A stretch of 43,816 bases of DNA, from the NCBI GenBank assembly GCA_009787115.1, contig WRGQ01000169.1, forward strand, positions 1-43,816, read 5' to 3'. The stretch's first letter is position 1. The number at the start of each line of letters is the position of its first letter. Source of the stretch: Bacteroidota bacterium (GTDB lineage Bacteria > Bacteroidota > Bacteroidia > Bacteroidales > WCHB1-69). The translations under genes and the position numbers were made by a program. Under the pieces are notes generated by a model. It saw nothing but the letters and a program-made list of their open reading frames with translations, was not told where the DNA came from and searched no databases. Positions 6,307 through 43,566 of this stretch are shown here, piece after piece.

Positions 6307-8700
6307 ATGAAAAAACTTGTTTTAATATTTTCTACTTTCTTAATACTAACGTCATTAACTGCCCAGAAGGTTACACTTTCGGGGATAGTGAAAGATGCTG
6401 CGAACGGTGAAACGATTGTCGGCGCGTACATTATTCTTAAAGATTCGCTTTCAAAGGCTACTTCCAACGGCGCCGTTACCAACACTGCCGGCTTCTATTC
6501 CATCACCGTTGAAAAAGGAATCTATATACTTAACGTCAATTATTTGGGGTATAAACCCATCTCAGAGAAAATTACCATTACCTCCAATCTCAAGAAGAAC
6601 ATTGAAATTATGCCTTCCGCCATTATAGCCGATGAGGTGGTGGTGAAGGGAGAGGCTGCCGATAAAAATGTTTCCGGTATTGATGTTGGAAAAATGGAGA
6701 TGAAGATTGAAACTATTAAATCTATCCCTGCCTTTATGGGCGAGGCGGACGTTATACGTTCTATTCAGTTGCTCCCCGGCATTCAGTCAGGCTCGGAAGG
6801 GAACAGCGGCTTTTACGTGCGCGGTGGAAACTCCGACCAAAATTTAGTGATGTTGGACGAAACGCCCATCTTCAACCCGGGTCATCTGTTCGGCTTCTTC
6901 TTTATCTTCAATGCCGATGCTTTGAAAAGTGTAGATGTCATTAAATCGGGGATGCCCGCCAACTACGGTGGTCGCTTGGCGTCTATTGTAGATGTGTATC
7001 AAAAAGAGGGCAATATGAAGAACTACGAGTTAGACGGCGGCATTGGCGTTATCTTCTCCCGCTTTACCGTGCAGGGTCCGATTAAAAAAGATAAAGCCTC
7101 TTTTATCTTCTCCGGCAGAAGAACTTATATTGACTGGCTTATTCAACCTTTCCTGAAAACTACTTCGCCGTTTAAAGGCGCCAAATTCTATTTCTACGAC
7201 TTGAACGGCAAGTTTAATATCATTGTGAATGACAAACACCGGCTTTATATCGGTGGTTACTACGGAGATGATGTGTATGGCTTTAAATCCACGAGCGGCA
7301 ATATCAATTCGGTTTTTGCGTGGGGCAACGGGGCTGCTTCCGTGCGGTGGAACTACATTATTACCCCGAAACTGTTTTTAAACACCTCCGGTACTTTTAG
7401 CGATTATAAGTTTAAAACAAAAATGAAACAGGGCATTTACAATTTTGCCATCGGGTCGGGAATAAGAGATTATGCGTTGAAAACGGAACTCACTTTTTTG
7501 CCTAATCCCAAACACAATACTAAATTCGGGGTGTATTACATTTTCCACACTTTTTTCCCTTCCAATTTTGATGTGGAAGCCGGTGAGGGAAACTTCCTTA
7601 CTTTTCCGAAAACAAAACCTTTTTATGCCAACGAGTTGTCGGTCTATGCCAACGACGAATGGGATATTGTAAAATGGTTGAAAGTAAGTTATGGCATACG
7701 TTATTCACATTTTTCCCATATCGGGACATTTACACGTTTTGTTTTAGACGAACAGATGCGGGTGTTAGATTCTATCCAATACAAGCCCGGACAAATGATT
7801 TCTCAATACAATTATCCTGAGCCGCGCTTGTCTGCCCGTTTTTTATTAGATACCAACACTTCTGTAAAAACCTCATACACATTTAACTGTCAATATCTGC
7901 ATCAGATTTCTTTAGCAACCATTTCGCTGCCCACCGATGTTTGGGTGCCCAGTACCGAATTTGTGAAACCTCAAACAGGACATCAGGTCTCGCTGGGCGT
8001 TTTTAGAAATTTTTATAACAATATGTTTGAAGCCTATATTGACGCTTATTATAAAACGATGAACAACCTGACCGAATATAAAGACGGAATGGATTTATCA
8101 ACTTTTCAGGTAAATTCCGACCAGCGGCTTACGCAAGGGAAAGGCTATTCGTGTGGGGTTGAGTTTTTTCTGCAAAAAAACAGAGGACGTTTTACAGGGT
8201 TTGTGGGTTATACCCTCTCTTTTACTCAGAGAAAATTTTCGGAACTCAATAAGGGAGAATGGTTTTGGGCAAAATATGACCGCCGCCACGACGTCTCTGT
8301 CAGCCTCAACTACGAAATTATCCGGAATAAACTGTCGGTGGCTGCCGTTTGGGTATTTGCAAGCGGAAATACAATGACTATTCCTGTGGGATACTACTTT
8401 TTCAACGGCGACCTTATGACGGAGTACAACGACAGAAATGCCTACCGACTGCCCCCCTACCATCGTTTAGACCTTTCCGTGAACTGGAACATTGTGAAAC
8501 GCAAACACTTTGAAACAGGGCTGAACTTCTCTATTTATAATGTTTACAATCGTAAAAATCCTTTCTTTATCTTTTACGAAACCACCACCAACTTTGACCC
8601 CACCACCACTCCCCCTGTTTTTGAAATCGAAACAAAAGCCTATAAAATGAGCTTATTCCCGATAATACCTTCTATCAATTGGAACTTTAAAATAAAATAA
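6307..8700 (+). CDS. TonB-dependent outer-membrane receptor with N-terminal carboxypeptidase-regulatory-like domain
   Basis: The ORF opens at 6295, but MKKLVLIFSTFLILTSLTAQ from 6307 is a typical signal peptide. CarbopepD_reg-like segment (LSGIVKDAANGETIVGAYI). Plug motifs (IQLLPGIQSG...GFYVRGGNSDQNLVMLDETPIFN). Long beta-barrel. Confidence 0.85.
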   Translation: MKKLVLIFSTFLILTSLTAQKVTLSGIVKDAANGETIVGAYIILKDSLSKATSNGAVTNTAGFYSITVEKGIYILNVNYLGYKPISEKITITSNLKKNIEIMPSAIIADEVVVKGEAADKNVSGIDVGKMEMKIETIKSIPAFMGEADVIRSIQLLPGIQSGSEGNSGFYVRGGNSDQNLVMLDETPIFNPGHLFGFFFIFNADALKSVDVIKSGMPANYGGRLASIVDVYQKEGNMKNYELDGGIGVIFSRFTVQGPIKKDKASFIFSGRRTYIDWLIQPFLKTTSPFKGAKFYFYDLNGKFNIIVNDKHRLYIGGYYGDDVYGFKSTSGNINSVFAWGNGAASVRWNYIITPKLFLNTSGTFSDYKFKTKMKQGIYNFAIGSGIRDYALKTELTFLPNPKHNTKFGVYYIFHTFFPSNFDVEAGEGNFLTFPKTKPFYANELSVYANDEWDIVKWLKVSYGIRYSHFSHIGTFTRFVLDEQMRVLDSIQYKPGQMISQYNYPEPRLSARFLLDTNTSVKTSYTFNCQYLHQISLATISLPTDVWVPSTEFVKPQTGHQVSLGVFRNFYNNMFEAYIDAYYKTMNNLTEYKDGMDLSTFQVNSDQRLTQGKGYSCGVEFFLQKNRGRFTGFVGYTLSFTQRKFSELNKGEWFWAKYDRRHDVSVSLNYEIIRNKLSVAAVWVFASGNTMTIPVGYYFFNGDLMTEYNDRNAYRLPPYHRLDLSVNWNIVKRKHFETGLNFSIYNVYNRKNPFFIFYETTTNFDPTTTPPVFEIETKAYKMSLFPIIPSINWNFKIK

Positions 8701-8724
8701 CCACTAACCACTAACCGCTAACCC
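8701..8724. repeat. Heptamer tandem repeat CC(A/G)CTAA x3 plus CCC
   Basis: CCACTAA CCACTAA CCGCTAA CCC fills exactly the gap between the receptor stop (8698-8700) and the coaX TTG (8725). TAA falls in all three + frames. Confidence 0.9.
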
Positions 8725-18589: not shown

Positions 18590-18671
18590 TTGGCGCTCCC
18601 ACAAAAGCACGCTAATCGTAAATAAATAATTAAAACACAGAAATTTATAAAACATTAAAATAGACATTATT

Positions 18672-19608
18672 ATGAAAACATTAAAATTGTCATTAATCTG
18701 TTTATTACTATTATTTGTTTGCCGAAATACGTATGCACAATATATACCATCTATTGAAGTTTTATTGATAAATGATGTTGAAGGTTCTGATTCAAATATG
18801 CTGAATTTAAGAAATGGAGATGCTTACGATTTTTACAATAATTTGCGCACATGGATACCCTATTGTAATTCGGAACCATTAAAAAATCCTCCTATAACCT
18901 ATATTGAGATCGCTTTTCATGTATTTCTTGACAATAACGGAGAACATAATGTATATACAAATACACAAGAAGGAAAAGATAAACTTCTAACCGATTATTA
19001 TAACGGCATTATTGAAAACGAGGAACTGTTGCAGGAAACAATAAATTATCACAATGAAATATTGGCAGTTACGAATTATATGGAAGAAATAAGTCGGAGC
19101 GCTTTATTTAGCCGCAAAAGCGATAGCCTGATAGATCTCAATCAAATTAGAGATTGGTATGACGAAATCTATACTTTAAACGCAAAATATTCGTTGGCAG
19201 AAACCTACTACCAACTTGGCAAATTTGAAGAAGGCTTTAAGACTTTGGCATTAATTCCGAAAAAATACAATTTGAATGAAGATGAGATGATGAGACGATT
19301 AGATGATGAGGTGATTAACGATGAAGAAAATCTTACGGTCTTACAATCTTCCGGTCTTCCGGTCTCAGACAATATTACTCTTATACCCACCCCCACCACC
19401 GGCGAACTACAAATATTAGGGAGCAATAAACAATTAATAATGAAAAACGTTGAGGTATTCGATGGTTATGGTAAAAAGTTATTATCGCATACCGCAGACC
19501 ATACACCGCACACCGTATTAGACATTTCCCATCTTGCATCTGGATTGTATTTTATAAAAATAAAAACCGAAAACAGGCGAAGTAGTTAAGAAAGTAGTGA
19601 AACAGTAA
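18672..19608 (+). pseudogene. Decayed T9SS cargo gene: signal peptide, metalloprotease-like N-terminal fragment without HExxH, and T9SS CTD with a terminal frameshift
   Basis: The ORF 18672-19589 ends ...IKIKTENRRSS*. Skipping A19575 gives ...TENGEVVKKVVKQ* (stop 19606-19608), a canonical last strand of a T9SS CTD. The N-terminal part (IEIAFHVFLDNNGEHN) resembles the start of secreted Zn-protease domains, but there is no HExxH anywhere. An octamer repeat array sits at the joint. Confidence 0.5.
19332..19363. repeat. Octamer tandem repeat CTTACGGT CTTACAAT CTTCCGGT CTTCCGGT
   Basis: Four 8-nt units lie inside the ORF and are translated as LTVLQSSGLPV. The 10-mer CTTACGGTCT recurs at 43571-43580. 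Confidence 0.85.
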
Positions 19609-20165: not shown

Positions 20166-20167
20166 TT

Positions 20168-20313
20168 GTTTAAGATTTAAAATTTAAAGTTTAATGTTTA
20201 AAGTTCAATGTTCAATGTTTAAAATTCAAAAATCAAATCATCTCATCCACACATCATCTAATCATCTAATCATCATATCTGCTTTCTGCTTTCTGTTTTC
20301 TGCCTTCTCCTTT
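20168..20313. repeat. 146-nt mosaic of tandem heptamers and octamers (GTTTAAA/GTTCAAT family, CATCTAAT, CTGCTTT family)
   Basis: At least 10 consecutive 7-nt units at 20168-20237. CATCTAAT x2 plus CATCATAT at 20255-20278. CTGCTTT CTGCTTT CTGTTTT CTGCCTT CTCCTTT at 20279-20313. Confidence 0.95.
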
Positions 20314-21366: not shown

Positions 21367-21394
21367 CGGTATGCGGTCACTTGTCACTTAATAT
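21367..21394. repeat. Degenerate heptamer array CGGTATG CGGTCAC TTGTCAC TTAATAT
   Basis: Fills the grpE-dnaJ spacer. Units are shared with 23729-23742 (GCGGTAT) and 28842-28848 (CACTTGT). Confidence 0.65.
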
Positions 21395-22638: not shown

Positions 22639-23742
22639 ATGAATTGCCATCCTAATCACGACAAACGCATTGTTGTTACTTTAGATGCCGGCGGCACAAA
22701 CTTTGTTTTTGGCGCTATTCAAGATTATCAATTTATTGTAACACCTGTTACAAAACCATCAAATTCAGATGTTCTAGAAAAATGTTTGAACACTTTGACG
22801 GAAGGGTTTACAGAGGTAATCAATCAGTTGCCGGAGCCTCCGGTGGCTATCAGTTTTGCTTTTCCAGGTCCCGCAGACTATCCCAATGGCATTATTGGTG
22901 GCTACCTGCCCAACTTCCCCTCTTTCAGAAATGGAGTAGCCTTAGCCGATTTCTTACAGGAAAAATTGAAACTGCCCGTTTTTATTAACAACGATGCAGA
23001 CCTCTTTACCTACGGCGAAGCAATTGCAGGCGTTTTGCCCGAAATTAATCAAAGATTAGAAAATTTGGGTAGCGCAAAACGCTACCGAAATCTCATCGGT
23101 TTTACTTTTGGAACAGGCTTTGGGTTCGGAATCTCCGTGAACGGCAAAATGTATGTGGGAGACAATAGTTGCTCCGAAATCTTCTGTTTACCACACAAAC
23201 ATCTGCAAAACATTATTGCAGAAGATGGCGTTTCTATTCGTGCGGTGAAAAGGGTGTATGGAGAATTAGCCGGTGACCCTGCGCATAGTTTAGAACCGTT
23301 TGATATTTACCAGATTGCAGAAGGTGTCAAAATTGGAAATCGCGAAGCCGCACAAAAGGCATTTGCGCTTATGGGCGAAGTCGCAGGAAATGTTATCGCC
23401 ATTTGTGCCTCTTTGTTAGATGGACTTATCGTCATTGGGGGTGGACTCACCAAAGCGGAAAAATATTTTATGCCTGCATTGCTCAAAGAGATGCGCAGCA
23501 ACTTCTCAACCATTTCGGGAGAAACGGTGGCGCGTGTGCAAAGTAATGTCTATGACCTGCAAAACGACGAGGAGTTCCTGCAATTTGCCAAAGGCAATCA
23601 GCAACCCCTCAAAGTTTTTGGCTCTGAAAAAGAAGTAATTTACGACCCGCAGAAAAGAATAGGCATCACTATCTCAAAATTAGGAGCAGACGTTGCCACC
23701 TCGCTCGGTGCCTACGCATTTGCGGTGAGCGGTATGCGGTGA
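22639..23742 (+). CDS. ROK-family sugar kinase/regulator-like protein
   Basis: 367 aa. N-terminal ATP-binding LDAGGTNFVFG. DADLFTYGE and GTGFGFG motifs typical of ROK/glucokinase-type ASKHA proteins. The last 7 codons and stop lie in a GCGGTGA array. Confidence 0.65.
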   Translation: MNCHPNHDKRIVVTLDAGGTNFVFGAIQDYQFIVTPVTKPSNSDVLEKCLNTLTEGFTEVINQLPEPPVAISFAFPGPADYPNGIIGGYLPNFPSFRNGVALADFLQEKLKLPVFINNDADLFTYGEAIAGVLPEINQRLENLGSAKRYRNLIGFTFGTGFGFGISVNGKMYVGDNSCSEIFCLPHKHLQNIIAEDGVSIRAVKRVYGELAGDPAHSLEPFDIYQIAEGVKIGNREAAQKAFALMGEVAGNVIAICASLLDGLIVIGGGLTKAEKYFMPALLKEMRSNFSTISGETVARVQSNVYDLQNDEEFLQFAKGNQQPLKVFGSEKEVIYDPQKRIGITISKLGADVATSLGAYAFAVSGMR

Positions 23743-23789
23743 GATGATTAGATGATGACCTATTAACCCTTTAACCCTTTAACCCCTAA
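23722..23789. repeat. Composite repeat: GCGGTGA GCGGTAT GCGGTGA, then GATGATTAGATGATGA (reverse complement of the CATCTAAT array), then CCTATTAA CCCTTTAA CCCTTTAA CCCCTAA
   Basis: Read directly. Spans the ROK 3' end and stop (TGA 23740-23742) up to the rfbC ATG (23790). The TAA triplets of the octamers fall in all three + frames. Confidence 0.95.
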
Positions 23790-24338: not shown

Positions 24339-25046
24339 ATGATAAAACTCATTATTTTTGATTTGGACGGCACATTGCTGAATACATTAGACGATTTGGC
24401 AGATTGTACCAACTATGTTTTACAACAAAACAGATACCCGACCCACAAAATTGATGCATATAAATATTTTGTCGGAAATGGCGTAGAGATGCTATTGCGC
24501 CGCGCACTGCCCAAAGATATTACCGAAACTGCTTTTGCTGAAATTTTACAACAATTTATGAATTACTACGAAATTCATAAAGCAGATAAAACTGCGCCTT
24601 ACGAAGGCATAATCGAAACGCTTGAAAAATTACAGCAGAAAGAAATTTTGTTAGCCGTAGCCACCAACAAACCGCACGAACTGCTGCCTGAGTTGATGCA
24701 ATACTATTTTCCAACCATAAAATGGGCAGCCGTTTTTGGTAATCGAAAAGATGTTCCCATAAAACCTCACCCGCAAATTGTTTACGATATTTTGAACGCC
24801 TGCAAGGACTGTTTTGTGTCCTTTGTGCCTTCTTTGTGTCCTTTGTGGTTAAAAAAACTTTTAAGACACCCTCATACCAACCAAATATTATATGTAGGCG
24901 ATACCGCAGTGGATATGGAGACCGCGCAAAACGCCGGCATCAAAAAAGTGGGCGCGCTGTGGGGATTTCGCACCAAAGAAGAACTACTACAGGCAAATGC
25001 CGATTATATTATGGAACGCCCGCAAGAACTAATAGAACTTTGTTAA
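24339..25046 (+). CDS. HAD-superfamily hydrolase (phosphoglycolate phosphatase-like) carrying a repeat-derived in-frame insertion
   Basis: 235 aa. Motif I IIFDLDGTLL, motif II ATNKP, motif III KPHP, motif IV YVGDTAVDMETA. About 27 extra codons (24804-24884) lie between motifs III and IV. Confidence 0.8.
   Translation: MIKLIIFDLDGTLLNTLDDLADCTNYVLQQNRYPTHKIDAYKYFVGNGVEMLLRRALPKDITETAFAEILQQFMNYYEIHKADKTAPYEGIIETLEKLQQKEILLAVATNKPHELLPELMQYYFPTIKWAAVFGNRKDVPIKPHPQIVYDILNACKDCFVSFVPSLCPLWLKKLLRHPHTNQILYVGDTAVDMETAQNAGIKKVGALWGFRTKEELLQANADYIMERPQELIELC
24812..24848. repeat. CTTTGTG-type short repeat x4 inside the HAD hydrolase CDS
   Basis: TTTTGTG(24812) ... CTTTGTG(24821) ... CTTTGTG(24832) ... 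CTTTGTG(24841). Translated as CFVSFVPSLCPLW. Confidence 0.85.
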
Positions 25047-25051
25047 AACTT

Positions 25052-25072
25052 CACTCATTACTCGTCACTCAT
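25052..25072. repeat. Heptamer array CACTCAT TACTCGT CACTCAT
   Basis: Read directly, 6 nt after the HAD hydrolase stop (25044-25046). Confidence 0.65.
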
Positions 25073-28810: not shown

Positions 28811-28854
28811 CTCACATCATCTAATCATCTAATCATCTAATCACTTGTCTCACG
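28811..28854. repeat. CTCACAT, then CATCTAAT x3, then CACTTGT CTCACG
   Basis: Three perfect 8-nt units at 28818-28841, in the convergent spacer between the hypothetical gene and tsaB. TAA falls in all three + frames. Confidence 0.95.
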
Positions 28855-29552: not shown

Positions 29553-29597
29553 TGTTTAAGTGTTAAGTTTATTCCTAATTCGTAATTCGTTATGTTT
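29553..29597. repeat. TGTTTAAG TGTTAAG TTTATTC CTAATTC GTAATTC GTTATGT array
   Basis: Fills the whole hutH-tsaB spacer. The TAATTCG/CGTAATT unit is the same family as 40951-40978. Confidence 0.8.
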
Positions 29598-33655: not shown

Positions 33656-35518
<1,863 letters not shown>

Positions 35519-39278: not shown

Positions 39279-41000
39279 TTATGGCGCCCGCAGCAGAATA
39301 TCCTCCTCAACATCCCAAAACCCTCTGATATTTATATCTTTCTCAATAAGGAAAATCTTTTCAGGTTGCTCTTTTTTGTGATAGTCTCCGGTGTCCCATT
39401 TACCGTTTTTATTTCTATCTTCTACAACCTTAATACGATAAGCGCCGGGCAAAAGATGCTTGTATTCTATTGTTCTGGAAGATGATATTACTTCGTTGAA
39501 TATTACTTTCTGATTTGATGAGAGCAATTCCACAAGAAAATCGGCATCGTTATCCGCATCAACTTTATAATGAATGATTAAATTCCCGTAATATTTTTCT
39601 GTTTTCTTTGAAAATGAAAACATTACAGTATCATTCGTAGCGCCGTCATAGCCATAAAACAGAGAATCCCGAAACCATAATGTATAGTTAATTTTAGGTT
39701 CAAATTTAAAAGGCACGGGAATCTGCATAACAAAATCGTCCGGAATATTTACAAAGACCGATGTCGTATCTTTTCCTGTAAAAAGTGTAGCAATAACCAA
39801 CATTTTGGCGCTGTCCGCCGGCTTTACCGGATAGGAGAAATTAAGTAGCGTTGGTGCGTACAAGTCCTCTTTATTTGTCAGATTGATATTTAGTTTTGTC
39901 GCAACAGGTTTGGTGGCTTTCCCTGCGCTACGCGGGATTTGATAAGGCTGCAGTTCTACAGTATCGGTTTTTGCAGTATCGGTTTGAATATAAACCATTG
40001 CGGAATCCTTAAAAAATGTTTTTAAATACAAAGAGATTGTATCGCTTGTTGCATTAATTTTTGAGAAGAAATCTATAATGGTGTCGCTTTCTACTTGTAA
40101 ATCAAAAGAATGTATGGGGATTTTATATGGAAAACGATATACGCCCTTTTGGGAATTAATATAAGGGTCAAGCAATTGCACCGTATCGGCTTCCTGAAAC
40201 AGACGTAAGGTTATAGATGCTTCCGTATCTGCATGAAATAATGAATCGGTTTCATAATATTTGGCTTGAAACGTGCTGTCTGCAAAGGCAATAAGTTCAT
40301 TAGGCAGATTGTATTTCAAATCGGAATTAATATCTTTCAGTGCAAATATTTTGTAGTTTTTTTGTTTTAGATGATGAAAAAAGAAATCTCCTTGAGCATT
40401 GGTTTTGGTTAAGTAATTTGGACGTGTTGTAAGAGGGAGGGAATCAATATCTTCTTCGTACAACATCACAAAAACGCCTGCTTCCGGTTTGCCGGTTTCC
40501 GCATTTACAACCCTTCCGAAAAGTTTATGACCGTCAATAGAGTCTCCCGTAGAAAATGCAAAATTGTACCCCGATAACTTGTTCCCTTCGTGATAATCCT
40601 GAATACAATCCGAAAATAAAAGATTATAAGTGGTATTACTTCTTAGCGTATCGTTAAATTTTACCAGCACGGATTTTCCTTGTGTGGTATAATCCACACG
40701 CTTATCCATAGGTGGCGAAAAAATAACATTTTCGTTAGGATTATTTAATGTAACAAATTCATCGAAAGTGATTTTAATGATTTTTCCGTTAAAATTTGCG
40801 CTACCGTTTTCAGGTTTTTCGCCAACAACTTGTGGGGGGGTAGTATCTTTGGGACCTCCGGAGGGGAGTACTTGCCGGGCGCATCCGGAAAGGAGTATGA
40901 AGAAGGCAGAAAACAGAATGCAGAAAGCAGAATACAACGTGTAGTTTGTTCGTAATTTGTAATTTGTAATTCGTAATTTATTTGGGATGTGGGTAGTCAT
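39279..41000 (-). CDS. Ig-like (Big_5/SbsA-type) domain lipoprotein, with signal peptide encoded by repeat modules
   Basis: 573 aa. Lipobox LLSGC followed by GGPKDTTPPQVVGEKPENGSANFNGKIIKITFDEFV, typical of Bacteroidota Ig-like lipoproteins. The single ATG at 41000 sits 19 nt from a -7 box. The first ~38 codons are read from heptamer arrays. Confidence 0.75.
   Translation of the reverse strand: MTTHIPNKLRITNYKLRTNYTLYSAFCILFSAFFILLSGCARQVLPSGGPKDTTPPQVVGEKPENGSANFNGKIIKITFDEFVTLNNPNENVIFSPPMDKRVDYTTQGKSVLVKFNDTLRSNTTYNLLFSDCIQDYHEGNKLSGYNFAFSTGDSIDGHKLFGRVVNAETGKPEAGVFVMLYEEDIDSLPLTTRPNYLTKTNAQGDFFFHHLKQKNYKIFALKDINSDLKYNLPNELIAFADSTFQAKYYETDSLFHADTEASITLRLFQEADTVQLLDPYINSQKGVYRFPYKIPIHSFDLQVESDTIIDFFSKINATSDTISLYLKTFFKDSAMVYIQTDTAKTDTVELQPYQIPRSAGKATKPVATKLNINLTNKEDLYAPTLLNFSYPVKPADSAKMLVIATLFTGKDTTSVFVNIPDDFVMQIPVPFKFEPKINYTLWFRDSLFYGYDGATNDTVMFSFSKKTEKYYGNLIIHYKVDADNDADFLVELLSSNQKVIFNEVISSSRTIEYKHLLPGAYRIKVVEDRNKNGKWDTGDYHKKEQPEKIFLIEKDINIRGFWDVEEDILLRAP
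40902..40978. repeat. CTGCTTT-family module (40902-40936, read on -) and AATTACG/AATTACA x4 array (40951-40978, read on -)
   Basis: The - strand reads AATTACG AATTACA AATTACA AATTACG ... ATTCTGCTTTCTGCATTCTGTTTTCTGCCTTCT. A 33-nt stretch is 31/33 identical to 20278-20310. Confidence 0.95.
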
Positions 41001-41150: not shown

Positions 41151-42449
41151 ATGAAACCCAAACTCTTCTGCTCATTTCTTCTGCTCATTTCGTTCTTTTG
41201 TGCAAAGACACAAACCTTAACTTTGGCAGATTGTGTGCAGCAAGCGCTTGAATCGAACTACGGCATTCAAATCGCGAAAAATTCGGAAAACATCAGTCGC
41301 GTGAATTTGAAAAGTTACAGTGTTTTTTTGCCTGTTATCTATGGAGATGCAAATTACAGAAGTAGTTACAATAATTCTAAAATAGAAAGAGTGAACGGAG
41401 AGATTATTGAATTTCATAATTCAAATGCTTTAAATGACGGGGCAAGCCTCAACATGAACTGGCGCATTTTCGACGGTCTCTCTATGTTTTTTACCAACTC
41501 TAAAAATAAAGTATTGTTAGATATCAGCACGTTGAATACGGTTTTGGAAATTGAACAACTTATTGCAAATGTGAGCGCTGCATACTATAATGTGTGGATT
41601 CAAACCAAACTCTTAGAAGCCACAGAAAATATTGTGGATATTTCAATGCAACGTTTCAATATTGCCAATAGCAAATACCAAATCGGCGCGATTTCAGGAT
41701 TGGAGTATCGCCAAAGCAAGATTGACCTGAATGCCGATAGTTCACAACTTATGCTTCAAAAACAGGCGCTTACCAATGCCTATATCTCTTTAAATACTTT
41801 AATGAACAGAGATTTAACCAAAGAAAATTATGTGCAGGATACTTTAACGCTGATGCCGCTGTTCAATTATAACCAAATTGTGGACAGCGCTTTGCAAAAT
41901 AATAGTTCGTTGTTAATCTACCAAAAAGGGATCAGATTGTCGCAGATGGAGGTGAAAAACAGTTTGTCTCAGTTTTTCCCCTCTATTGATTTTACTACTG
42001 GATATCAGTATTCCAATGCCTTAACCCCTGCATCGGTTACCTCTATTCAAAGTATGTCGCACGGATTTTACTGGGGATTAACGGCGCGCATTCCTATTTT
42101 TAGCCGCATGGAAAATTTGCGCAATAACAAAGTCGCAAAGTATCAACTGCAAAATGCGGAATTGCAATATAAAGACGTTGAACTTAGTGTGTTAAGCGCA
42201 TTGGCAGAACTCTACAATGTCTATAAAAATAATCATGTTCTATTGGAATTTGAAATGGAAAATGTTGAGATTACCTCTGAAACTTTGGAGATTGCCCTCG
42301 AAAAATATCGCATCGGCTCGCTGTCGGGGGTAGAGTTTAGAGAGTTTCAACGTTCCTATATTGAAGCCGTTAAACGATTAATGAATGCCTCTTATCAAGC
42401 AAAAGTATCTGAAATAGGATTACAGTTGTTAAGCGGAAAATTAAAATAA
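41151..42449 (+). CDS. tolC: TolC-family outer membrane efflux protein
   Basis: 432 aa. Signal peptide. LTLADCVQQALESNYGIQIA start and two OEP repeats typical of TolC-like proteins. Confidence 0.85.
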   Translation: MKPKLFCSFLLLISFFCAKTQTLTLADCVQQALESNYGIQIAKNSENISRVNLKSYSVFLPVIYGDANYRSSYNNSKIERVNGEIIEFHNSNALNDGASLNMNWRIFDGLSMFFTNSKNKVLLDISTLNTVLEIEQLIANVSAAYYNVWIQTKLLEATENIVDISMQRFNIANSKYQIGAISGLEYRQSKIDLNADSSQLMLQKQALTNAYISLNTLMNRDLTKENYVQDTLTLMPLFNYNQIVDSALQNNSSLLIYQKGIRLSQMEVKNSLSQFFPSIDFTTGYQYSNALTPASVTSIQSMSHGFYWGLTARIPIFSRMENLRNNKVAKYQLQNAELQYKDVELSVLSALAELYNVYKNNHVLLEFEMENVEITSETLEIALEKYRIGSLSGVEFREFQRSYIEAVKRLMNASYQAKVSEIGLQLLSGKLK

Positions 42450-42457
42450 AAACCATT

Positions 42458-43516
42458 ATGAACCTTAAAAGAATTATTTACATTTCGCTTCCCATTTTAG
42501 CCGTGCTTGTTTTTGTTGGATATAAAGTGTTCTTTTCCAAAAGCAAACAAACAGAGGAAGAACAAAAGCCAAAAGGCGGTGGGGCTATCTCTGCCAAACT
42601 CTATGTGGTAGAACCCAACCTGTTAAGCAACGGCATTAATGCTGTGGGAACGCTTCTGCCCAACGAAGAGGTGGAACTGATCAGCGAAGCCGCCGGAAAA
42701 GTGGTAGGGATATTTTTCGACGAAGGCACAACGGTTACAGCCGGACAACTTTTACTGAAAGTTGATGATTCTGAACTGCAAGCGCAATTGAAACGCGCAG
42801 AATATCAACTGGCTCTCTCTGGAGAACGTTTGAACCGCCAAAAAATTCTGTTGGAAAAAGACGCTGTGAGCCGCGAAGAATTTGATCAGGTGCAAACCGA
42901 CTATAATATCCTGCAAACCGATATTGACCTGTTGAAAACGAAGATTGCCAAAACGGAAATCAGAGCGCCCTTTGCAGGTACTATCGGTTTCCGCGGCATA
43001 AGTTTGGGCAGTTATTTACAACTTAATACTATCATTGCAAGGTTGATAGACCAGAACAAACTGAAATTGGAGTTTTCCATTCCCGAAAAATATGCCTCTA
43101 TCTGTTTTACCGGAAATAAAATAAAGTTTCGCACCGAACTCTCTCCCGACGAATTTGAAGCCCTTGTGTATGCCGTTGACCCGAAAGTGGATGCGGCTAC
43201 CCGAACGATAACGGTAAGAGGAATTTACAATAATGCCAACCGAAAACTGTTAGCCGGTATGTTTGCCCGTATCAACCTCATTATCAACCAATCTAATGAA
43301 GTGATTTTGATACCTACCGAATCTATTGTTCAAGAAATGGAAGGCAAAAAAGTGTGGGTAGTTTCCAACGGAAAAGCCTTTTCTAAATCTATCACCACAG
43401 GTTTCCGCAGCAACAATCAGGTGGAAGTAGTAACCGGTTTGCAAATGGGCGATACTATTATGGTTACGGGGTTGATGCAGGTGAGGGAAGGAATTGCGGT
43501 GAACGGTGAGCGGTGA
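42458..43516 (+). CDS. Efflux transporter periplasmic adaptor subunit (MFP/HlyD family)
   Basis: 352 aa. N-terminal TM anchor. Lipoyl-like hairpin (AGKVVGIFFDEGTTVTAGQLLLKVDD ... IRAPFAGTIG). Coiled-coil. Beta-barrel. The last codons and stop lie in a GCGGTGA array. Confidence 0.85.
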   Translation: MNLKRIIYISLPILAVLVFVGYKVFFSKSKQTEEEQKPKGGGAISAKLYVVEPNLLSNGINAVGTLLPNEEVELISEAAGKVVGIFFDEGTTVTAGQLLLKVDDSELQAQLKRAEYQLALSGERLNRQKILLEKDAVSREEFDQVQTDYNILQTDIDLLKTKIAKTEIRAPFAGTIGFRGISLGSYLQLNTIIARLIDQNKLKLEFSIPEKYASICFTGNKIKFRTELSPDEFEALVYAVDPKVDAATRTITVRGIYNNANRKLLAGMFARINLIINQSNEVILIPTESIVQEMEGKKVWVVSNGKAFSKSITTGFRSNNQVEVVTGLQMGDTIMVTGLMQVREGIAVNGER

Positions 43517-43566
43517 GCGGTGGAAATTTAAAATTTTAATGATTAATGATTAATGATTAATGATAA
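43496..43566. repeat. GCGGTGA ACGGTGA GCGGTGA GCGGTGG, a spacer, then ATGATTA x3 plus ATGATAA
   Basis: Read directly. The adaptor stop TGA (43514-43516) is inside the third unit. TGA of the ATGATTA array falls in all three + frames. Confidence 0.95.

Follow-up and report, generated by a model that had tools for sequence, protein, structure and literature searches.

Short tandem arrays with a shared unit vocabulary at gene boundaries and in leader sequences of a Lentimicrobiaceae-like Bacteroidota lineage

The window analysed here is the whole stretch of 43,816 nt of contig WRGQ01000169.1 (assembly GCA_009787115.1), a compact Bacteroidota chromosome segment with 38% G+C. Its genes include BamA, three OmpH/Skp paralogs, components and cargo of the type IX secretion system (T9SS), GrpE/DnaJ and FabF/ACP, and the subject of this study is the short tandem arrays of 7- and 8-nt units found between and within them. 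A reading made from the sequence alone had listed such arrays at 11 gene boundaries, with the junction of Skp2 and Skp3 (20168-20313) as the type locus. When arrays were called with Tandem Repeats Finder (TRF) and the period-7 and period-8 calls were merged, 15 arrays totalling 447 bp were found in the window, while 100 dinucleotide-preserving shuffles gave 2.75 ± 1.8 arrays (maximum 8) with a mean coverage of 49 bp. The excess was confined to periods 7-9, and TRF called no arrays of period 5-6 in the window. Arrays were recovered at nine of the 11 listed loci (8698-8723, 19331-19365, three arrays in 20168-20313, 23763-23785, 25051-25072, 28816-28843, 29571-29590, 40897-40979 and 43496-43564), and their reality was thus confirmed. 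The locus at 21367-21394 turned out to be a weak remnant, uncalled at score 30, and that at 24812-24848 an irregular array of period 9/11; two arrays missed in the first reading were found at 19281-19315 and 19486-19515. Arrays covered 198 of 2698 intergenic bp and 249 of 41118 bp in open reading frames (ORFs), the ORF share lying almost wholly at ORF ends. The placement at gene boundaries therefore held for almost all arrays, which are intergenic or at ORF termini, but not for those at 19281-19515, 24812-24848 and 40897-40979, which lie inside ORFs. Three spacers (8701-8724, 23743-23789 and 29553-29597) are made entirely of arrays.

An Rfam scan of the window gave zero family matches. The sequence-only reading had set the arrays apart from CRISPR, repetitive extragenic palindromes (REP) and miniature inverted-repeat transposable elements (MITEs), and this distinction held. 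The units are contiguous and 7-8 nt long, as against the ~23-50-nt repeats with unique spacers of CRISPR. The arrays are direct repeats, and the type-locus RNA was less structured than all 200 of its shuffles (z = +2.58), unlike REP and bacterial interspersed mosaic elements (BIME). The blocks shared between loci have variable ends and lack the terminal inverted repeats and target-site duplications of MITEs.

At the type locus, the Skp2/Skp3 spacer proper was found to span 20166-20214 (49 nt), and positions 20215-20313 encode the Skp3 signal peptide. The 146 nt that had been taken for an intergenic junction are thus mostly coding sequence. The GTTTAAA/GTTCAAT array (8-9 copies, 20168-20230, plus strand) occupies the spacer and supplies the Skp3 start codon, the ATG at 20215 being placed inside the GTTTAAA-type array by the gene caller and the reading frame. 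It is followed on the same strand by ATCATCTM octamers (20234-20277, perfect core 20253-20274), which encode the signal-peptide n-region SNHLIHTSSNHLIII, and by CTGCTTT ×5.1 (20278-20313), which encodes the hydrophobic core or h-region SAFCFLFSAFSFF; then come SGSAQS and the conserved mature N-terminus KFGH. The same design was seen in a Big_5 lipoprotein gene (39279-41000, minus strand), where AATTACR ×4 (40952-40979, minus) encodes the n-region KLRITNYKLRTNY and the reverse complement of the CTGCTTT block (40897-40936, minus) encodes the h-region SAFCILFSAFF, followed by a lipobox-like LLSGC. In addition, a 13-nt unit, TCTTCTGCTCATT ×2.5 (41164-41196), was noticed inside the signal peptide MKPKLFCSFLLLISFFCA of an outer-membrane efflux protein, and therefore other repeat periods build leaders too.

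Elsewhere in the window (a strand is given where one was assigned), CCACTAA ×3.7 (8698-8723) fills the 24-nt spacer from the stop codon of a TonB-dependent receptor to the start of type III pantothenate kinase, and the CGGTATG/CGGTCAC/TTGTCAC remnant (21367-21394) lies in the GrpE/DnaJ spacer. The ROK/RmlC spacer is filled by two copies of GATGATTA, the inverted ATCATCTA unit, and then TTAACCCT ×2.9 (23743-23785), and the TsaB/HAL spacer by GTTTAAG-like units and then TAATTCG ×2.9 (29553-29597). The perfect array CAC+ATCATCTA ×3.5, followed by CACTTGTCTCAC (28813-28854), is located between the convergent genes hyp249 and TsaB, and CACTCAT ×3.1 with 73% matches (25051-25072) comes directly after the stop codon of a HAD phosphatase. 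GCGGTGA ×3 (23722-23742, plus) gives the ROK kinase ORF its last 5 codons and stop codon, and GCGGTGA ×3.9 (43496-43522, plus) likewise supplies the C-terminal tail and stop codon of an HlyD-family ORF. A perfect TTAATGA ×4.1 array lies at 43536-43564. Within the HAD phosphatase, the irregular CTTTGTG-type array (24812-24848, plus) is part of an in-frame insertion of ~20 residues between profile positions 156 and 184. The ORF at 18672-19589 contains, all on the plus strand, GATGAGAT ×4.4, which is the reverse complement of the ATCATCTA unit (19281-19315, translated EDEMMRRLDDEV), CTTACGGT ×4.4 (19331-19365, translated NLTVLQSSGLP) and a CGCACAC-type array ×4.3 (19486-19515) in the loop of a T9SS C-terminal domain, from FDGYGKK to SGLYFIK.

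The 305-aa product of this last ORF combines an ordinary signal peptide with a T9SS C-terminal domain; the ORF has its three arrays within the C-terminal third and looks like a recent insertion. Only in the window does it separate Skp1 from Skp2; in the related loci L207, L208, L210, L213, L215 and L216 the two genes are adjacent with an 18-23-nt spacer. A 26-nt direct repeat (AAAACATTAAAATAGACATTATTATG / AAAACATTAAAATTGTCATTAATCTG, 18645-18700) spans its start codon. A simple repeat of another kind, (TGT)16 at 35079-35126, gives a 16-glutamine run in a BatD-domain protein (minus-strand gene 33656-35518).

The distribution of the arrays was followed in other genomes. The closest genome among species representatives, L003 (90% amino-acid identity in ROK), is the Lentimicrobiaceae metagenome-assembled genome (MAG) Co191P3bin3, where Co191 stands for Cornitermes sp. 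and P3 for a hindgut compartment (PMC7024585). Its synteny with the window ends right after ROK, so that the junctions from ROK to HAL are not comparable there; its density of 7/8-nt arrays was 0.53/kb, and the TTAATGA unit is repeated ×6.6 in it. In an ingroup set of loci fetched by Skp3 or ROK homology and not seeded with a pattern (137 kb), the density was found to be 0.415 arrays/kb, as against 0.063/kb in the window shuffles and 0.079/kb in 79 other Bacteroidales loci, mostly from Alistipes MAGs (1.2 Mb). The nearest outgroup locus (L212, 56% Skp3 identity) had no arrays in 20.5 kb, its Skp2/Skp3 spacer measures 11 nt, and its signal peptide is of the ordinary MKK type. A metagenome scan for ATCATCTAATCATCTAATCA returned at least 119 loci; ~75 of them, among the matches listed and from a handful of JGI projects, were combined with the window and L003 into a larger set of 447 kb. 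Most of these contigs were attributed to termite guts from project identifiers and from contig names matching termite MAGs. A scan of viral contigs for the octamer pattern gave 5 unrelated matches. The array phenomenon is specific to one lineage, Lentimicrobiaceae-like and of the higher-termite gut, and the recurrence of the units beyond the window, on which the first reading had staked its claim, was seen both in L003 and in the 447-kb set.

A different arrangement was noted in Alistipes/Rikenellaceae MAGs of ruminants, where heptamer arrays occur as inverted pairs a short distance apart and could form long hairpins (L035 11746-11855, L044 9809-10087, L052 12-145, L081 3735-3808 and L021 20596-20671). 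In this way (AAACTGA)n is paired with (TTTTCAG)n, for instance, and (GTTTAGA)n with (AAACTCT)n; the unit AAACTGA differs by one base from the published TAACTGA unit.

The 447-kb set was then used to ask how far the loci draw on the same units, by an exact-unit concentration test with the seeded octamer excluded and, as null, letters shuffled within each unit so that composition was matched. The 228 non-seed arrays fell into 103 canonical units, as compared with 186 (minimum 175) in the null, and 132 of them belonged to units seen at least three times, as compared with 28 (maximum 48). Period 7 dominated the period spectra once the seeded octamer was discounted. Statistically, then, the shared unit vocabulary is real over the ~450 kb of related contigs, and the window units AATCATT (=TTAATGA), AATTACG, AAACTTT (=GTTTAAA) and AACCACT are among those that recur. 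Within the window, unit sharing was modest (6 pairs within 1 mismatch vs 1.4 expected). Sharing within 1 mismatch between window and relatives (83 vs 49 ± 14) was too permissive a measure for AT-rich heptamers and was replaced by the exact-unit test. The recurrence of units at unlinked loci thus stood as a shared vocabulary and as block identity, but at the level of single units within the window it was only modestly above the composition-matched null, and the case for copying between loci rests on the identity of blocks and not of units.

Such blocks were found within the window and among its relatives. Positions 20278-20308 and 40901-40931 are 97% complementary over 31 nt and have the variant units CTGCTTT, CTGC[T/A]TT, CTGTTTT and CTGCCTT in the same order; descent by copying, and not independent slippage, therefore accounts for the two CTGCTTT blocks. 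Similarly, 20250-20279 and 28813-28842 are 93% identical. Among the related loci, L134 and L148 have 72 identical nt in common and L117 and L193 have 95 nt in common at 94% identity, in both cases with unrelated flanks, and numerous other locus pairs have blocks of 50-90 nt in common. The polarity of the composites is fixed: (GAATTAA)n or (GTTTAAA)n is followed by (ATCATCTA)n, and often by (ATCATTA)n and (ACCACTA)n and then ATG, upstream of different genes. The type-locus order of GTTTAAA before ATCATCTA recurs in L094, L161, L171, L134 and L148. Heterogeneous blocks at non-orthologous sites, conserved polarity and the cassette replacement described below agree with the earlier claim that copying or recombination between loci is needed beyond local slippage.

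A separate dispersed element with paired hairpins (e.g. TGCCCTTTCAGGGCGCAATTTTATACACCGCTAATCCGCAACCCATGGCGTTGCCATGGGC) was seen adjoining array composites in the termite-gut contigs L104 (7907-8307), L117 (2950-3030) and L127. In L114, L131, L142 and L196, which have blocks of 74-83 nt in common, a G+C-rich hairpin, CCCCCGCCAGCGGGGGAG, is directly followed by ATCATCTA-type arrays.

Across the 447-kb set, arrays covered 16% of intergenic bp and 1% of ORF bp, and 198 of 286 were intergenic or straddled a gene end. They were absent from conserved promoter-bearing spacers such as that of BamA/Skp1. Where arrays are translated, they encode n- and h-regions of signal peptides, T9SS C-terminal-domain loops, C-terminal tails and the HAD in-frame insertion. 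The h-regions are built from CTGCTTT, TCTCCTT or TTCTCAA arrays, and MFKIQKSNHLIHTSSNHLIIISAFCFLFSAFSFFSGSAQS is one example of an array-encoded leader. In 17 loci, ATCATCTA-type arrays sit between FDVYGRK and GxYFVK of the T9SS C-terminal domain and encode (V/L)SSNHLITSSSNHLINIS, with a spacing of 87, 111 or 135 nt, i.e. in-frame steps of 3 units; 16 of the 17 are in frame. The window and L003 carry non-ATCATCTA units at this position. The array of L109 (558-661, spacing 103 nt) is off frame by one 8-nt unit relative to the 86%-identical L169 (129-240), and this C-terminal domain could belong to a pseudogene, a phase-off allele or an assembly error.

Orthologous junctions were compared between the window and its relatives, as the sequence-only reading had proposed, and the arrays were found to differ in every one of them. 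The BamA/Skp1 spacer is conserved and array-free in L207, L208, L210, L213 and the window. At the Skp2/Skp3 junction and in the Skp3 leader, all five carry arrays and the units differ: GTTTAAA, ATCATCTA and CTGCTTT in the window, GTTTAAA and CTGCTTT in L210, AATTACA and CTGCTTT-like units in L207, TTCTCAA in L208 and TCTCCTT in L213. The window and L210 have GTTTAA(A)GATTTAAAATTTAAAGTT directly after the Skp2 stop codon in common, an orthologous remnant. In the ingroup, the mature part of Skp3 always starts with AQSKFGHVDY, and the leaders differ in every ortholog as different mosaics of MFKVQ, SYKLQVT, SSNHLI/SSHHLI and SAFCFLL, a pattern also seen inside clusters at 90% identity.

The most informative pair was L214 and L215, in which Skp2 and Skp3 are ~99.7% identical and the intervening cassette is wholly different. 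The swapped segment is bounded by (GAATTAR)n at the Skp2 stop codon and by the (TCTCCTT)n h-region array, and the breakpoints lie inside these arrays, where identity resumes. It measures 72 nt with (CTTTCGYG)×3 in L214, and 146 nt with a hairpin, (ATTTAAAA)n, a new ATG and (CCTCAYA)×5 in L215. In the ~94% identical pair L216 and L217, the entire composite is replaced. A search for a full-length donor of the swapped cassettes gave array-level matches only. It was also noted that L214 (beyond 976) and L215 (beyond 3549) are unrelated right after the Skp3 stop codon, L214 going into (AGGAGAA)-type arrays, and therefore gene order breaks at that boundary too.

These results together suggested a mechanism that we regard as moderately probable, namely that the arrays are long simple-sequence repeats (LSSRs) born by slippage, that like arrays recombine and are thereby spread and exchanged, and that only unconstrained sites tolerate them. 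The arrays would arise and lengthen when replication slips, or the template is switched, on units of 7 or 8 nt. Arrays of the same unit at different loci or alleles could then serve as patches of homology, through which recombination or gene conversion would copy composites to new sites, and recombination with breakpoints inside arrays would swap whole cassettes. The block copying and cassette replacement are seen directly in the sequences; the role of slippage and the recombination pathway are inferred. Judging from where arrays survive, a selection filter would let them persist only where sequence is almost unconstrained: in short promoter-less spacers, at extreme 3' ends of ORFs, in cleaved Sec signal peptides, in the loop of the cleaved T9SS C-terminal domain and in surface loops. 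At ORF 3' ends, TAA- or TGA-bearing units would stop all three frames within three copies, and in signal peptides the pyrimidine-rich CTGCTTT, TCTCCTT and TTCTCAA would translate into usable hydrophobic h-regions. Many of the permissive sites are parts cleaved off the protein (signal peptides and T9SS C-terminal domains), which fits such a filter of tolerance. The arrays would be passively transcribed and translated and would not act as a dedicated regulatory device.

Several points weigh against this mechanism. The analysis names no enzyme or pathway for the exchange, and slippage itself was not observed. Because a single octamer pattern served as the seed of the 447-kb set, the set carries an ascertainment bias, and its genes were called by a simple longest-ORF rule. 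Some arrays, moreover, equal or exceed their flanks in stability. The orthologs L097 and L137, 80% identical overall, keep an AATTACA, ATCATCTA, CTGCTTTT leader that is 87% identical without indels, vs 81% in the upstream coding sequence; such array stability is unexpected for purely neutral filler. Furthermore, the units are enriched in stop codons on both strands (87% and 78% vs 49% expected), and this enrichment, together with the low structure of the type-locus RNA, would also fit a selected function.

It is possible, though not probable, that recombination-based shuffling of modules is itself the point, like arrays being portable crossover sites that assemble, swap and renew intergenic linkers and cleavable targeting sequences (n-/h-regions of Sec signal peptides, loops of T9SS C-terminal domains) as fast as strains diverge, perhaps via a lineage-specific enzyme. 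If so, the repeat DNA would be a generator of secretion signals and more than filler.

Another role, at the RNA level, appears unlikely: the arrays would be unstructured, stop-rich intercistronic linkers or translation-initiation enhancers, possibly with S1-, Csp- or CsrA-like binding sites. Bacteroidota are a phylum without Shine-Dalgarno initiation, which such a spacer function would suit. A start codon often follows within 0-10 nt of an array's end, the type-locus RNA folds poorly, the units are rich in stop codons, and TAACTGA ×4 abuts the ATG in L122, exactly as in Beggiatoaceae, where an RNA-level role of that kind has been put forward for TAACTGA repeats (PMC4679880). However, arrays were found in both orientations relative to the flanking genes, the commonest unit being antisense 20 times and sense 11 times relative to co-directional genes, and they also occur between convergent genes and inside ORFs; the mixed orientation and the convergent placement speak against an RNA element tied to one strand. 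At one and the same junction, near-identical strains have unrelated units, so that no word is conserved per site. Stop-codon content was set aside as evidence of function: the enrichment is real, but it is confounded by ORF calling, as the ORF caller absorbs stop-free arrays into ORFs.

We consider it similarly improbable that the arrays are cargo of a dedicated copy-and-paste machinery, for example a Y1 transposase of RAYT-like type, or a retroelement by which templated repeat cassettes are inserted at gene boundaries. Identical heterogeneous blocks at unrelated sites, the conserved polarity of composites and the cassette swaps between near-identical strains speak for it, and a Y1_Tnp gene adjoins the Skp3 junction in L210/L211. 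The blocks, however, have no terminal inverted repeats, target-site duplications or constant ends, their boundaries vary from pair to pair, and no swapped segment has a full-length donor. Among all loci compared, a Y1_Tnp homologue was present only in L210/L211 and in the Alistipes-type L081, and the Y1 transposase was therefore rejected as the driver. With neither constant ends nor a transposase gene tracking the blocks, a mobile-element origin is weakened.

The L210/L211 region also holds a gene of PF05635, the 23S rRNA intervening-sequence protein family (L210 12639-13152, equal to L211 4806-5320). It is bracketed by the inverted arrays (AGGAGAA)×5.7 and (CTCCTTT)×6, which could pair as a long stem, and the Y1 transposase-like gene (151 aa) lies 1.3 kb upstream of it, adjoining Skp3.

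Phase-variable simple-sequence repeats (SSRs) of Haemophilus, Neisseria and Campylobacter are long, perfect single-unit tracts that vary by single units within populations. That the arrays studied here are contingency loci of this kind, in which the gain or loss of one 7- or 8-nt unit shifts frame or spacing and so switches secreted and surface proteins on and off, T9SS cargo and proteins with array-encoded leaders among them, is very doubtful. The periods are not multiples of 3, arrays occupy 5' coding ends of genes for secreted proteins as well as T9SS C-terminal domains, strains differ strongly in their leaders, and the domain in L109 is one unit out of frame relative to L169. The arrays, in contrast, are short and imperfect multi-unit composites (median 4.4 copies and 32 nt, matches 73-100%), and such tracts slip poorly; a long near-perfect single-unit tract was not seen among them. 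L109 vs L169 was the one single-unit frame-changing difference, and the others were multiples of 3 units, as in the 16 in-frame C-terminal-domain arrays, or cassette replacements. Many arrays flank the housekeeping genes GrpE/DnaJ, PanK, RmlC and TsaB, and three assemblies of the window organism do not differ in a single base. The short, imperfect arrays and the block swaps argue against classical phase variation as the main role.

An origin of the arrays as assembly artefacts of low-complexity reads can be practically dismissed, for although the contigs L002 (at window position 20233) and L213 (10686-10715), which come from two assemblies, end inside arrays, three assemblers gave identical sequence through the arrays, L208 equals L209 and L210 equals L211, arrays are conserved between 80%-identical orthologs and are shorter than the k=141 of the ENA contigs, and reading frames are intact in all but one of the 17 T9SS C-terminal domains. 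The ENA, JGI and Logan assemblies may stem from the same reads, and their agreement is one of independent assemblers and not of independent samples. Contig breaks at heptamer repeats are also known from Elizabethkingia (PMC4679880), and the ends of L002 and L213 fit dispersed repeats that break the assembly graph.

Dispersed short-unit arrays of several kinds have been on record for decades, with no mechanism to account for how they spread. On the mechanism favoured above, slippage-born repeats exchanged by recombination and tolerated at permissive sites, this lineage gives unusually clear sequence evidence of spread, with common words and composites at many loci and a cassette swap between strains at ~99.7% identity. 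Repeat DNA here appears to be routinely translated into functional, disposable protein parts, which suggests a route to fast turnover or de novo origin of secretion signals. In practice, the arrays break metagenome assemblies, mislead the calling of start codons and ORFs, and inflate N- and C-terminal diversity in MAG catalogues. In the literature on termite-gut Bacteroidota we found no description of such an array system, and in the literature searched we found no array-encoded signal peptides, arrays in T9SS C-terminal-domain loops or cassette swaps. The earlier statement that nothing similar is described in Bacteroidota was nevertheless overstated, because TAACTGA heptamer repeats upstream of start codons have been reported from Beggiatoaceae, cyanobacteria and five Bacteroidetes (MacGregor 2015; PMC4679880), and TAACTGA occurs in this clade.

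The analogy that the sequence-only reading had drawn with the short tandemly repeated repetitive (STRR) heptamers of heterocystous cyanobacteria, reportedly described by Mazel et al. in 1990, is a fair one, both being dispersed heptamer tandem arrays. As with the STRRs, several recurring heptamer families are found in tandem over many non-coding sites of one genome. The STRR consensus units are CCCCAGT, TTGGTCA and CAACAGT, and none of them occurred in tandem in the 447 kb. The host here is of another phylum, and the units are AT-rich, have many stop codons, comprise octamers as well and reach into coding leaders. TAACTGA repeats are mostly intergenic, often lie a few nt from the start codon and stop all three frames, and "larger assemblages of heptamer repeats" are described in Elizabethkingia, Gramella and Aequorivita (PMC4679880). 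The arrays studied here resemble them as direct heptamer repeats that are mostly intergenic, near start codons and prone to break contigs. TAACTGA itself was found in tandem in two related loci (×4 in L122, ×2 in L132) and not in two or more direct copies in the window; the forward placement just upstream of a start codon fits L122 exactly, while the arrays in general are of mixed orientation. There, one unit with strong forward orientation dominates, whereas here more than 100 units, including octamers, occur in both orientations, form ordered composites, encode signal peptides and T9SS C-terminal-domain loops, and are cassette-replaced between strains. Phase-variable SSRs likewise consist of tandem units of a length not divisible by 3, placed in the 5' coding region or upstream of genes for surface proteins, but differ from the arrays in the ways set out above. 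LSSRs, as surveyed by Mrazek, Guo & Shah (2007) and summarised in PMC4679880, have units of 5-11 nt in lineage-specific excess with heptanucleotides commonest; coding regions exclude units whose length is not divisible by 3, and polymerase slippage is the proposed origin. The window arrays agree with them in head-to-tail units of ≤11 nt, in excess over base composition, in the avoidance of coding regions by non-multiple-of-3 units and in lineage-specific over-representation led by heptamers (0.415, 0.079 and 0 arrays/kb in ingroup, other Bacteroidales and outgroup), and go beyond that survey, as summarised there, in the interlocus vocabulary, ordered composites and cassette exchange. The arrays thus belong to the known class of heptamer repeats and LSSRs, together with STRR and TAACTGA repeats, and are unusually abundant and modular in this lineage.

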